Source: Octopus sinensis (Eukaryota). From it: a stretch of DNA of 64,000 nucleotides. The stretch covers positions 13,888,001-13,952,000 of the forward strand of contig NC_042998.1 in assembly GCF_006345805.1 (NCBI RefSeq), read 5' to 3'. A program made the position numbers and the translations under genes. Shown in pieces: positions 1,233 through 63,316 of the stretch; the stretch's first letter is position 1; the number at the start of each line of letters is the position of its first letter. The notes under the pieces are model-generated. The model made no database searches. It was not told the origin of the DNA and saw only the letters and a list, made by a program, of their open reading frames with translations.

Positions 1233-3400
1233 TAGTAGCAGTACTCGCAACGATAAGTTTTTGCTTTATTAGGTCGTATGACTTAGTAAATATCGATACG
1301 TAGATTATTTCAATATTATATGGATTACTTTCGACAGTAAAATAGTTAAATGGATATAACAGCATACAAGGTATCACCGACTCTTTTATCTTTCCAAACA
1401 CTGAGCATGACGAAAACGAATCCTTTCCTTCAAGTATGCTACTCCATATAAAAAGAAAGAAAATCAAAGAGAGAAATCCGTCAATATTCTATTGAAACTT
1501 AATGTAAATTTTACGTAACCTGGACATGCTCAATGGTTCAGAAAGAATCCGATCAAATGACTGCGTTTTAGCTAAACACGATGATTTTCTTTTTATTTGT
1601 TCTTCCTGTGCATTTTATGCTTTTGTTCTTGTGTTTTTACTTGTAAGAAATTGATCCTTTGTATTTTAATTGCATTGCACCTCGTTGTTTGAAATAAAAT
1701 TAATGCTGAATGTTATTTTTGCTCTTCAAAAATTTAGGTTCAAACCAGTATTGTCTTCATTAATATTACAGAATTGTAATTCATTAGATCGCTAGTGGTA
1801 GCAATCTCTCTTATACGATGTGGAGGAAAGGGAGTATAACAATCAAGCCTGCACTCTCTTTACCTCTTCTACATTCCATATATTAATTTACTTCATCTCA
1901 TGCACCTTCTAGAATAGAACAATTTAAGAATTTTTAAAATTTAGCGAGATATTACAGCGATGGTGAGAGTACTTGGTTAAATATAAATTTCAAATCTCTT
2001 TAAGGAAAAAGAAGTTGGCAATGAAATCAGTTTAATTATCATATCAATTGATGCATGACATGTGTCATTCTCATACACGTAATTTTACAAAGGACATTTG
2101 TGTGTAACATAACGCTACTATCACAGCCATTGTCAATTCAAAATTTATAATAAAGATTCATATTTTCAGTACCTTCTTCCTTTAGTAAATGTTCCGATAA
2201 ACACATTAACTGCCAGAGTGTTGTAAATTCTATTACCAAGTCTACATCATAGAAAATCGTGATATTCATTTAAAAAATCATACTGAATAATTATGTTCTT
2301 ATATTTGTCTCTATTTAAAAATTTTTTTCTGCTTCACAGGACAGTTTTAAATCAATGAACAACTGATTTTAGATTTGCAATGTTGAATAAAATTCACAAT
2401 CACGTCACAGTCTCTTTTCATTTATATTCAGCTCTTCTTAGACTTGTTTTCAGCAAGGAAAGGACTGGATTTTATTATTTTTATAAATTGAGTTCCTAGG
2501 AAATATGAAGATTTTATTTGTTTTCTTGAGATTTTTACATTGTTCGAGAATATTACGACCACTTTAAAGCAGGGTGGGGTCTTTTTTAGATATTCAGTTT
2601 TATATTTTAACTTTCCAAGCATGAAATTCTGTGTTGGCATAGCGTATGTACATTGTACACAAACATGTCTTCAGAAATAAAAGAAAACATTCGGCTTTCA
2701 GGAACTCTCAAAATTCAATAATCATGCCACCGCCATTTTCTTTATGCATATATATGTACATACCATATTTATTTTCTACGATATGTTTGGGTACAAACAC
2801 ACACACACACGCACACACATACACACACACATAGAAGGGTGTGAGAGAGAGTGGAGAAAGAAGGGTGATAGTGAGAGAGAGAAGGGTGATAGGGAGAGTG
2901 GAGAAAGAAAAGAAAAACAAGGGACTCAACACATTTACTAGCAGCTAAATGTATCCTTATTAGCAATTGCTTGATTCGTATACATGCTATTTAAAGCTTC
3001 ATGGGTTTCTAACAATTCATCAGAACCTAAGCCAGGACGAAAAGTCAGTAAAATTTTAAGACACACCAAGGGCCGAATGAAAGTGTTTTATATAATATTA
3101 ATAATAATAATAGTAACAATAATATTATATATCTGTGTATGTTAAATAACAAACAGTATCGTTTGTAGTTCTATAATTAAGAGATGAGGAATTATTTATA
3201 TTATTTACATTATTTACATTTGACAGATATTTGTCCTCATCTTGTTTGTTGTTAACACAACGTTTCGGCTGATATATCCTCCAGCTATTATCAGGTGCCA
3301 TAGGGAAATTTCGAAACTGTCCACAGACATATGACGTAGTGGTTAAGAGCGCGTGCTACTAATCCCAAGATTTAAGTTCGATTCCAAGCAGTGACCCGAA

Positions 3401-3560
3401 CATCAACAACAACAATAACAATACTACTACTACTACTACTACTAAAAATAATAATAATAATAATAATAATAATAATAATAATAATAATAATAATAATAAT
3501 AATAATAATAATTATAATAATAATAATAATAATTATAATAATAAGAATAACAACAACATC
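3401..3560. repeat. (AAC)/(TAC)/(AAT)n microsatellite inside the palindromic element
   Basis: Direct read; source of poly-Ile ORFs. Confidence 0.95.
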
Positions 3561-3605
3561 GAAAACTACCTTAGGAATGAGAACCCAGGTTCGAAATTTC
3601 CCCAA

Positions 3606-3650
3606 GACACCTGATTAAGGCTGGAGGGTATATCAGCCGAAACGTGTTAA
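3606..3650 (+). ncRNA. Type I hammerhead ribozyme, mutated copy (CUGAUUA core)
   Basis: gacac-CTGATTA-a-ggctg-loop-cagcc-GAAACGT-gtt; the intact version is at 49026-49070. Confidence 0.65.
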
Positions 3651-3802
3651 CAACAAAGATGAGGACAAATATCCGTTAAATGTAAATAATGTAAATAGCA
3701 TATGGTTTATACTTCGTAGCTTGCGGGTGAAGCACGTTCACTTTCATTTTGTTCGTTGTCTATTTTGGTTAATGAGAGTGATGGAAAATGGAAGATTCGA
3801 AA

Positions 3803-3870
3803 GATTTTATTAATCGCTACAACTGTAGTATCGACCCATCACGGGTTTGTGACGAAAGATTTCCAGGCTG
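3803..3870 (-). ncRNA. Degenerate hammerhead-like motif followed by AATAAA (possible pseudo-LTR of the PLE fossil)
   Basis: Minus strand: gc-CTGGAAA...accc-gtgat-gggtc-GATAC-tacagtt-GTA-gc-gattAATAAA. Confidence 0.35.
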
Positions 3871-4499
3871 TAGACATAAAATGAGTTATACAGTATATTT
3901 GATTTAAGCGTGTCCATATTTCCGACGCACGTTTCTATTGCATAGGCAAAAAGCAATTGCATTAGTAACTAGTTATTTTCAACGCGCTATTAATGTATGC
4001 AACTTAATTCAATGCGTTCACTGATGTAGTCTGAAGCTAACTAGGTGCATGTGAGTTTAGCTATATTTTTGTGTCCAATGAATGTGAGAAAAACATTTGA
4101 AATCCTGATACAGCTGCAAAAACTGCTGTGAAGTTGACTCTATCCTGACCCTAAGTTTGAAGTTTCAATTGAGGATACTAGACTTTTAATTACGTCAATG
4201 TATACTTTTTAAAACACTAGCCCTAGGTGGACTACTGATCTTAAGATTTTGAGTACAACTACAGGTTATTTATTTAGAAATAATTAGATATATGAGATAT
4301 GTAGAATTTACTTGTGTGGCCAATTCAAAACTATCTATTTGTATAAATCAAGTTTTAAATTACATGCAGTTTCCTCGTGCAATATGTGTTGCAATGCTGA
4401 TTGCTACTTGATATAGGAAAACTAGATATTAAACTACCATTTACCACATAAACTCAGGCGACTTCTATTTACATGTCACTTATATAATTACGAATCCCT

Positions 4500-61090: not shown

Positions 61091-61409
61091 GTGGAGGCGC
61101 AATGGCCCAGAGGTTAGGGCAGCGGACTTGCGGTCGGAGGATCACAGTTTCGATTCCCAGACCAGCATTGTGTTTTTTTGAGCGAAAACACATTTAGCTC
61201 GACGAGGCTCCGGCAGGGGGTGGTGGCGACCCCTTTGTACTCTTTCGCCCCAACTTTCTCTCACACTTTCTTCCTCTGTCTTGAGTAACGCTGCGATGGA
61301 CTGGCATCCCATCCAGCTGGGGAGAACCCATACGCCACAGAAACCGGGAAACCGGGCCCATGAGCCTGGCTAGGCTTGAAAAGGGCGCCTAAATAAATAA
61401 ATAATAAGT
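61091..61409 (+). mobile_element. SINE head C with (AAAT)n end
   Basis: GTGGAGGCGCAATGGCCCAG head; TSD ATATGTAGAG on both sides. Confidence 0.9.
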
Positions 61410-61883
61410 ATATGTAGAGGGGTTCCCTTTACGAGATTTCGTGGAGTTAAAAGTATGAGATATATTTCTTCTGAATAGTATACATTTTTTTTTATGGTAG
61501 GAAGGACCTAAAATGTTTCGCAAGCCCTAAAGAAACGCATTAACTTTTACAGCCTTCGTGTTGCCCACCGGTGCATTATTCATCTATACGACCGACGAGT
61601 GAATGAATGAGCTTCTGCTATTTTACTTGAGCTGCTAGAATTAGTTGCCAAATCTTCGTCAGGTTACGAACTTCATCTTCAAAATGAAAGGATACGTTAA
61701 CTAATGTAATCCTTCGTTCATTGAAAACACACGTGAGACCAATATAAGTTGTCCATAAATAATATTTTTCATCGATTAGTATTGCTATATACCTACACAA
61801 CGAATTTGGTGAATCAACGTGGAGGTCATCCCTCTATATATTCGATCAATCTGCAGCCATGTATTTCTAGCTTAATGTGATAC

Positions 61884-62113
61884 CTATTTCTTTATTACAC
61901 ACAAGGGGCTAAACATAGAAGGGACAAAGACAGACATAGGTATTAAGTCGATTACATCGACCCAGTGCGTAACTGGTACTTAACTTATCGACTCCGAAAG
62001 GATGAAAGGCAAAGTCGACCTCGGCGGAATTGGAACTCACAACGTAACGGCAGACGAATTACGGCTACGCATTTCGCCCGGCGTGCTAACGTTTCTGCCA
62101 GCTCGCCGCCTTC
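61884..62113 (-). mobile_element. SINE B, full length
   Basis: Matches 34619/43543 copies; imperfect TSD atgt(g/c)atacc. Confidence 0.9.
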
Positions 62114-62387
62114 ATGTCATACCATACAATCAAACCGGTATTACTAAATTTTTTTCTACCATTACAAGTTTCATCCCTGGTGGTAGAGCAGGTTTGATTT
62201 CAAAGCAGTTTTGATAATCCTAATTTATTGCAGATTTCTTAGTCACTAAATTTAATATGGGAAGGACTAGTGCAATGATTCGAAGTTTATTGAATTCAAA
62301 ATACCAAAATGAAACTTTGATTGTGGAAGTTTAATGGCTTTTACCGAGACTGAAGCAATGACATGGTCATGATATAATTGAATACTA

Positions 62388-62622
62388 AAAAAAGGAAATA
62401 AATGCGCCTTTTTAAAGCCTAGCTAGGCTCATAGGCCCGGTTTCCCGGGCTCCATGTCGTATGTGTTCCCCAGATGGACTCATTTTTGCCAGCTGAGTGG
62501 AGTGGTGCAACGTGAAATGAAGTGTTTTGCTCAAGAACACAACGCGTTGCCCGATCCAAGAATCAAAACCACAATATTACGATTGATGCTGACACCTTAA
62601 CCACTAAGTCACGAGCCTCCAC
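62388..62622 (-). mobile_element. SINE head D with the tail of the 61091 head-C copy
   Basis: TSD AATTGAATACTA at 62376-62387 and 62623-62634. Confidence 0.9.
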
Positions 62623-62980
62623 AATTGAATACTATAGTTTCTTTATTCATTTTTTAATTTAAAAGTCTCCAAACAAAAACGTATCTTAATAAGACTGAAG
62701 AGTATTCCCCTCTTCTGCTTTCATTTTAGGGATTTCCATTCCCTTAGTTTCCCAACTTTTTGAATCAGATGAACATCCATATTTTCATCGATTTTCCTCA
62801 GAAATATCTTTATAAAATCTTTAGCAAAATTACGTTTAGCTAATGGATTTCCTTTCACAAATTACATGTGTCTATAGATACAGATTTTAATCTGTGGCTT
62901 GTGGCTATATATATATATATATATATATATTATATATATATACCCAAACCCACAAACATATATATATATATATATATATA

Positions 62981-63316
62981 TATAAAATATTATTCGAGAC
63001 AAAACCACTATTTTGCAAAACAAACAAGGAAAGACTTAATCAATACATAAATTTTAATAAATAGTCAAAAAATTTGACACTGAATTATTGGAAGTCCACC
63101 TGAAGATTGTCGATCAAGACAAGAAACGATTGTAGTGGCGGTTTTTTTTACTATTTATTAAAATTTATGTATTGATTAAGTCTTTCCTTGTTTGTTTTGC
63201 AAAATAGTGGTTTTGTCTCGAATAATATTTTATAATATTTTACTATAAAATCGATTTAATCCTAAATCTGATTTTTTCCCTGTAAATTTGGATTTATTCC
63301 CTAATATTTATTATTA
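62981..63316 (+). mobile_element. Palindromic PLE-type insert with hammerhead in the spacer
   Basis: Arms ~62981-63072 / 63142-63234; 3' extension to 63316; (TA)n-CCCAAACCACAAAC-(TA)n repeated on both sides. Confidence 0.85.
63096..63138 (+). ncRNA. Type I hammerhead ribozyme, complete fold
   Basis: CCAC-CTGAAGA-TTGTC-gatcaa-GACAA-GAAAC-gatt-GT-A-GTGG; predicted cleavage after 63134. Confidence 0.85.

Follow-up and report, generated by a model that had tools for sequence, protein, structure and literature searches.

Minimal type I hammerhead motifs at the 3' ends of Penelope-like repeats in an octopus genome, with one abundant family predicted to cleave slowly

What are the hammerhead-like folds that recur, many of them among (TA)n microsatellites, in a 64,000-nt stretch of Octopus sinensis DNA, and do they form one local system or belong to repeats found throughout the genome? 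The stretch (contig NC_042998.1, positions 13,888,001 to 13,952,000 of the forward strand; G000:C2:13888001-13952000 of the 2.72-Gb genome), hereafter the window, was described in an earlier note as hosting a multi-family system of hammerhead ribozymes in palindromic derivatives of Penelope-like elements (PLEs). Comparison with a genome sample of 120 fixed-step stretches (1.2 Mb in total) indicates that the folds are minimal type I hammerheads at the 3' ends of genome-wide repeats. We hold with considerable confidence that two of the families, A and C, are truncated coding PLEs, and that B, D, E and H are likely short elements copied by PLE enzymes. This kind of element and its architecture are already in print (PMC4209133, PMC8557442); of interest here are a family with a changed core, A6U, and a 3' untranslated region (UTR) with tRNA-like boxes, and the rest is largely known.

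A core-plus-stem motif search bore out the five families seen earlier (A at 3606 and 49026, B at 7151, C at 17794, D at 24686 and E at 63096), with cores at 3611, 49031, 7183, 17870, 24693 and 63100, and two further families, G and H, are present in addition. A loose descriptor finds six canonical cores in the window against 0.54 +/- 0.68 in 100 shuffles (maximum 3), and a stricter one with a palindromic helix III finds 26 canonical motifs in the 1.2-Mb sample against 0-2 in five shuffles. No hammerhead family is among the 150 listed of 166 Rfam matches (E<=1) to the window, the listed ones being nearly all microsatellites matched to microRNA models, and none of eight single copies folds better than its shuffles (z +0.36 to -1.9). 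Both results are as expected for minimal motifs, and because of them the case for hammerheads rests on the recurrence of the motif within families. The members in the window are as follows.

3168-3319 (-), family A: arm in inverted orientation, from the 3' end of a PLE of Penelope/Poseidon type, with a decayed core at 3294
3320-3400 (+), family A: tRNA-like head with an A-box (3332-3342) and a B-box (3375-3385), starting at a short palindrome common to the starts of many copies
3400-3700 (+), family A: (AAT)n tract, hammerhead and 3' end; core 3611 with G8U and a helix III deletion, predicted dead
48750-49135 (+), second family A pair: inverted arm 48750-48917, short interspersed element (SINE) fragment 48919-48991, and a sense arm with the intact core 49031 and a single stem I mismatch
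7064-7232 (-), family B: short element lying between two (TA)n tracts; its minimal hammerhead spans 7187-7152, core 7183 with A6U
17737-18062 (-), family C: 3' pseudo-long terminal repeat (pLTR, 17965-17737) of a young Hydra-type PLE, canonical core 17870, inverted tail piece 17961-18062, inside (TA)n
24575-24826 (+), family D: two arms head to head within (TA)n; core at 24693 carrying U4C, a weak stem II and, in this copy, A14U as well
62986-63304 (+), family E: two arms head to head within (TA)n; core at 63100 canonical, cleavage predicted after 63134; the best copies in the genome are 98-100% identical
39905-40375 (both strands), family G: old head-to-head pair; cores 39997 (-) and 40270 (+)
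33368-33719 (+), family H: in (TA)n; 122-bp near-perfect palindrome and tail, a fragment of a ~485-nt tandem repeat ending just 3' of the ribozyme

At family level the minimal type I core CUGANGA...GAAA...UH with stems I and II is found in A, C, E, G and H; it fails as a family rule in B, through A6U, and in D, whose search loci are mostly U4C. Helix III is a palindrome that would permit dimers, ACGU in A and B and 8-9 nt in C, D, E and the plus-strand copy of G; in the minus-strand copy of G it is broken. Families A, B, C, D, E and G each have at least 40 scored matches across the genome, and H also recurs. The sample holds 15 sites of A, 19 of B, 4 of C, 11 of D, 7 of E and none of G, which scale, roughly and with diverged relatives included, to about 34,000 copies of A, 43,000 of B, 9,000 of C, 25,000 of D and 16,000 of E. 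With six A-E sites in the window where 3.0 are expected (P=0.08), a local cluster was rejected, and what had been proposed as one system is the genome-wide background.

Upstream of its ribozyme, family A has an (AAT)n tract and then a head of 76 nt; long copies also include the end of a reverse transcriptase-endonuclease (RT-EN) frame with DKG, GSPLSP, YVDD and Cys/His motifs. Read by eye in the translations of loci L321-L325, DKG, a CCHH-type endonuclease and the lack of a linker zinc finger place it with the Penelope/Poseidon type. The endonuclease piece has 2,607 candidates in the genome, 150 of them scored; a protein search with a 50-aa piece of it passed none of 14 candidates. No diagnostic base splits 18 short from 8 long copies, so that the short ones form no lineage of their own, and family A is made up mostly of 5'-truncated copies of a coding Penelope/Poseidon-type PLE, with no separate non-autonomous lineage.

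A coding parent exists for family C as well. At 98.7% identity, the window copy matches the 3' end of locus L182. In that locus an inverted and truncated copy and part of a pLTR accompany an RT-linker-GIY-YIG frame, which a stop and frameshifts interrupt, together with the hammerhead and (TA)n; the GIY-YIG domain lies 591-635 nt upstream of the hammerhead at every locus showing both. Translations of L182 and L183 have the Hydra-type order of RT and then C-terminal GIY-YIG, with DKT, CxxC and CxH and no CCHH, and the (TA)n insertion and 3' hammerhead of that type are also found. L182 shares 35% identity over 409 aa with an intact 717-aa Hydra-type open reading frame (ORF); the Pfam GIY-YIG match is weak (E 0.07), a stop codon stands at the place of the RWK motif in L182 (the motif is present in L326), and the best named protein relative of the family C enzyme is from Argonauta hians, which, with an octopus-like look of the SINE content, suggests an octopod. 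Family C is made up mostly of 5'-truncated copies of a coding PLE that is, by its motifs, of Hydra type. The proposed link between minimal hammerheads and PLEs stands, and A and C, mostly truncated coding copies, are the families to which the earlier description as non-autonomous derivatives does not apply; it appears to hold for B, E and H, and probably for D.

Two observations on related enzymes belong here. At L182:3893-5158 the family C enzyme has a long Asn/Ser-rich linker and no CxCX5C, a motif for which a role in directing insertion to (TA)n has been proposed; even so, (TA)n stands at the ends of its copies. Another family of Hydra type is very young, with at least 150 scored matches at 96-100% protein identity, three of them with 717-aa open frames, and a U4C hammerhead core; its loci L326 (G000:C5:61734600-61738200), L327 and L196:1290-1350 show intact 717-aa frames, tandem pLTRs and many inverted pairs, and the intact ORF of L326 is a ready enzyme source for in vitro work.

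Family B, a monomeric element of ~190 nt with a recurrent 5' end, carries the changed core. Read with an extra base before stem II, the core is CUGUNGA, and exact 30-mers match the genome 12,543 times with U6 against 128 times with A6 (reversed control 0). Among the first 100 listed U6 matches N7 is T in 51, A in 22, C in 15 and G in 12, and because all four bases are found there, several source copies carried U6. Position 6 in 25 unselected copies is U in 21, C in 2, A in 1 and G in 1, while positions 3-5, 8 and 9 are kept in 22-24. A sister family keeps A6 and has a compensatory pair in stem I; at six loci taken around canonical-A6 matches of B, single mutants or locally duplicated copies of the short element were found. 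A6 is a near-invariant core position, and B has therefore been amplified with a ribozyme predicted to be slow. In the published passages on core mutants, position-6 changes are slow or low in activity (PMC3088659, PMC7151607), A6C lowering one ribozyme to 3.6e-6 per min in Mg2+ (PMC7151607), and U4C and A6C keep some activity (PMC3088659); A6U itself was not found in the literature searched. The B fold looks selected, although the search pattern is biased toward this, and so either catalysis is dispensable or a low, protein-assisted level survives.

The remaining families lack a visible parent. No coding parent came to light for B, D, E, G or H (upstream extension covered 25 loci each for B, D, E and G, and six more for B), and the PLE protein matches near L037, L053, L087 and L164, tried as parents, were neighbouring insertions or unlinked. 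The search loci of D mostly combine U4C with an A-G closing mismatch, and canonical sister copies exist. Nearly all copies of E start at a single point, and no RNA run for it turned up among the sequencing runs looked up. In H, 33368-33610 is a 98% palindrome, and head-to-tail arrays of four units at ~485 nt, with a ribozyme per unit, occur in L266 and in L222; such head-to-tail hammerhead units, the hallmark of retrozymes, are found in H only, B, D and E being mostly not tandem. B, E and H look non-autonomous, D probably so too, and all four are likely short non-coding elements copied by PLE enzymes. Separately, a 39-nt unrelated piece at the D palindrome junction (24640-24678) is an exact inverted copy of 25678-25716, 1 kb away, which suggests local template capture during joining. 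Outside the window, L214:3614-7214 holds a retrozyme-like tandem hammerhead array with a period of 535 nt, four units and two inverted.

How did the copies insert? The PLE signature of 5' truncation, an inverted copy and an optional 3' tail is present. Head-to-head inverted arms, earlier ascribed to most of the inserts, occur in both A copies, D, E and G; C has an inverted tail piece only, and B is a single arm. Flanking (TA)n, which the earlier note gave to four of the folds, is present at B, C, D, E and H and at neither A copy. Against a background of 1152/24000 (4.8%), (TA)4 lies within 24 nt of the 3' ends in 13/14 and 15/16 cases for E, 20/21 and 20/26 for D, 12/19 and 14/21 for C and 17/25 for B, which upholds the suggested preference in four of five families; in A the counts are 1/15 (long ends) and 0/26. 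Measured from the cut site, 3' ends gather at two places in each family, +104 (23/58) and +174 (31/58) in E, +42 (18/49) and +107 (24/49) in D, and +53 to +68 (22/45) and +90/91 (22/45) in A. Only 4 of 96 unselected matches have a 5' end within 5 nt of the cut site; cleaved RNA as the template was rejected for want of a pile-up there, and the scarcity is in line with uncleaved RNA as template. Sites with copies on both strands in the unbiased sample number 7/15 in A, 2/4 in C, 1/11 in D, 1/7 in E and 0/19 in B.

These patterns suggest a route in which RNA would be made from an upstream pLTR or by read-through, and the GIY-YIG domain would nick within the (TA)n in which B-E, and not A, end. Reverse transcription may then begin from two internal sites, as anole PLE work would predict, to yield the two preferred 3' ends past the ribozyme. 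Short and long arms stand head to head, often at a short palindrome; both cut DNA ends could be extended and the two cDNAs joined by microhomology, and an enzyme that extends both strands, as that of the anole does, would yield just such pairs with unequal arms. With helix III a palindrome of 4-9 nt, cutting would need two same-strand copies or protein help. Most copies would lack active dimers in cis, since helix III is palindromic and the two arms of a pair are on opposite strands; cutting would be rare in solo and head-to-head copies, and RNAs that run across the palindromes would fold into long hairpins. The idea that the elements scatter self-cleaving RNAs is accordingly doubtful, several cores being mutated besides. 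Amplification of B with A6U would fit a state in which cutting at full speed can be spared and the fold is retained mainly so that the enzyme recognises it.

Several observations weigh against this explanation. Palindromes are not the rule for all families, and that (TA)n predates insertion is only presumed, the 5' flank being TA in 7 of 12 full-length B copies. Five families have yielded no coding parent, as given above; the CxCX5C linker is absent from the family C loci L182 and L183 and present in L196 and L326, and the assignments to PLE clades depend on motifs. The stems of B are kept while its position 7 and the base at the cut site differ between copies, a pattern that a still-cutting ribozyme would also show.

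This last point leads to the view that all families are active ribozymes, with dimeric or protein-assisted cleavage needed and A6U and U4C tolerated variants, a view we take seriously while leaning to its contrary. Pairwise difference among the 25 unselected B copies is 12% in the ribozyme and 32-33% in the flanks (a contrast inflated by a search pattern that fixed stem II and GAAA), N7 is free (73%) and the cut-site base is never G; one compensatory stem I pair separates B from its canonical sister in 12 hand-picked rows. U4C occurs in the very young, intact Hydra family, and its partial activity and that of A6C, like the anole ribozyme that cuts only with protein, would suit the same view. 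The low activity of position-6 mutants, down to the A6C rate given above, speaks against it, as do the nearly always lone monomers of B (20 matches at 19 sites) and the missing pile-up of 5' ends at the cut site. That the palindromic inserts are instead DNA transposons resembling miniature inverted-repeat transposable elements, or fold-back artefacts of assembly, with motifs due to chance, is very improbable. The inserts are indeed short, non-coding, inverted and TA-flanked, the H insert includes the 98% palindrome, and single copies fold no better than shuffles; but arms are unequal and junctions variable, the same ends recur as single arms and in tandem arrays, in old pairs the two arms have drifted apart (71-85%), motifs are over ten times as numerous as in shuffles, and two families are joined to RT-GIY-YIG frames. 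For A and C the idea is already refuted.

[quoted passage not shown] A and B boxes at tRNA spacing give eight matches in 1.2 Mb against 0-1 in 20 shuffles, two in family A heads and six in other repeats with SINE-like heads, and the A head has an anticodon-loop-like stretch by eye; Rfam and default ARAGORN (0/30 loci) saw no tRNA homology or fold in it, and relaxed ARAGORN returned noise. Among 38 arms that extend to the head, the start falls at -17 to +4 in 19 and within the head in 15, and 4 continue upstream; arms reaching the start site end there in 19 of 23 cases overall and in 3 of 6 in the random sample alone (P=0.07), and paired arms are not independent. The 181-nt 3' part of A has no T4 run, unlike B-E, a weak point as T makes up only 24%. 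Short and long copies differ at no diagnostic base, as noted. The preferred start is a small palindrome 5-8 nt ahead of the head, which could reflect initiation by Pol III as well as a hot spot of fold-back or joining; because D, E and H, which have no tRNA head, also join at fixed points, the hot spot is slightly favoured. Tentative, too, is the boldest combination of these ideas, that B is a ~190-nt Penelope parasite in tens of thousands of copies and several subfamilies, its fold kept and its catalysis mostly lost through A6U, with the hammerhead as a landing structure for the RT-endonuclease and not a needed nuclease, alongside a coding Penelope whose captured promoter in the 3' UTR spawns a Pol III SINE.

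PLE hammerheads occur universally in several clades; in vitro they are weak, and in the one reconstituted system insertion does without them. As young canonical E, U4C in D and the 717-aa Hydra family, and the very abundant A6U B with its canonical sister stand side by side as natural controls, catalysis versus recognition becomes directly testable. If A6U cripples cutting, the fold would matter more than cleavage, and the landing-structure reading of B, if true, would be genome-scale natural evidence for that role. If Pol III transcribes the tRNA-boxed 3' UTR of A, a SINE would be arising inside a PLE. The remainder is ordinary PLE biology, useful for repeat annotation.

Two older features of the window lie apart from these families.

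3886-5137 (-): old Hydra-type PLE fossil with a GIY-YIG remnant at 4583-4877; relatives 65-76% identical
3800-3872 (-): hammerhead-like hairpin F, broken core CTGGAAA/GATA; unverified

The GIY-YIG fossil reported earlier is confirmed by its remnant (profile iE 1e-5, tblastn E 2e-8), of Hydra-type endonuclease, with no tie to any listed fold. The fold at 3803-3870, earlier listed as a decayed hammerhead, was not confirmed, no homolog with an intact core turning up among the loci examined. It was also rejected as the fossil's 3' ribozyme: the relatives cease to match the window at 3885, and aligning them reveals no more than a GAAAC...GUC half-site near 3930, with no core in the 190 nt upstream examined.

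Other repeats were seen in passing. L184:6595-7134 has a Neptune-like C-terminal GIY-YIG and a Cys-rich linker; it ends in (TA)n, and its 3' UTR may contain a motif of the U3-A8 type. Loci L207, L227, L311 and L313 of the sample hold more hammerhead families with U3-A8 cores (13 motifs in 1.2 Mb against 0-4 shuffled). An old TA-flanked palindromic family at 33036-33300 and 58047-58185, with relatives L142, L263 and L311 and no hammerhead seen, may be a PLE end. SINE copies in tandem, with periods of 184 nt and 138 nt, lie at 20997-21552, 19414-19950, 58370-58650 and 63431-64000 along with exact local duplications next to (TA)n tracts; the duplications may be assembly or slippage products. Mariner-like transposase fragments were recognised by eye at 55516-55977 (-) and 34919-35272 (+).

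The families and A6U were not found in print, though they may stand in Repbase or Dfam, in subscription papers, or in supplements to PMC4209133 and to the preprint cited below; a word search of PMC13282606 gave no mention of hammerheads. The comparisons that follow draw on passages of the cited papers. Closest are the minimal PLE hammerheads of Cervera & de la Pena (2014, PMC4209133), of low in vitro activity, which share the type I fold, the palindromic helix III, thousands of solo copies and opposite-strand pairs 100-700 bp apart, and with A and B the extra base before stem II and the G-C closing pair. The core variant named there is U3-A8, A6U not being among the variants in those passages.

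PLE inserts with an inverted copy, a tail and a (TA)n bias are likewise published for the Hydra clade (Craig et al. 2021, PMC8557442), which resembles our elements in DKT, CxxC, CxH, the lack of CCHH, a canonical hammerhead, (TA)n and the inverted truncated copy. Stems I and III of family D closely resemble those of Hydra-2_aMil. The octopus element Hydra-1_Obim has a hammerhead and a (TA)n preference (PMC8557442 supplement), but its ribozyme differs from all window families, and family C is not Hydra-1_Obim. Family C departs from the clade in its long low-complexity linker without CxCX5C, and tails are 27-150 nt here against 30-40 there.

Non-LTR retrozymes (PMC7229834; Li et al. 10.64898/2026.07.22.740005) are pLTR-derived non-coding hammerhead repeats to which the H arrays fit, whereas B, D and E occur mostly singly or as inverted pairs and not in head-to-tail arrays; cephalopods were not found in the retrozyme passages, and a word search of PMC7229834 for octopus gave none. 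The SINE-like SMalpha elements of Schistosoma (PMC6765202, PMC8490949) place a Pol III-type promoter beside a type I hammerhead, as A does, but the boxes of A lie inside a coding PLE whose whole 3' end is shared, and their promoter role is putative. In the green anole, Poseidon starts internally and inserts unaffected by ribozyme mutants (Frangieh et al. 2024, PMC11167929); the octopus families agree with it in having two 3' ends per family, both strands extended and no sign of a cleaved RNA template, and differ in the tRNA-like segment and (AAT)n of the family A 3' UTR and in the ends of B-E, which abut (TA)n.

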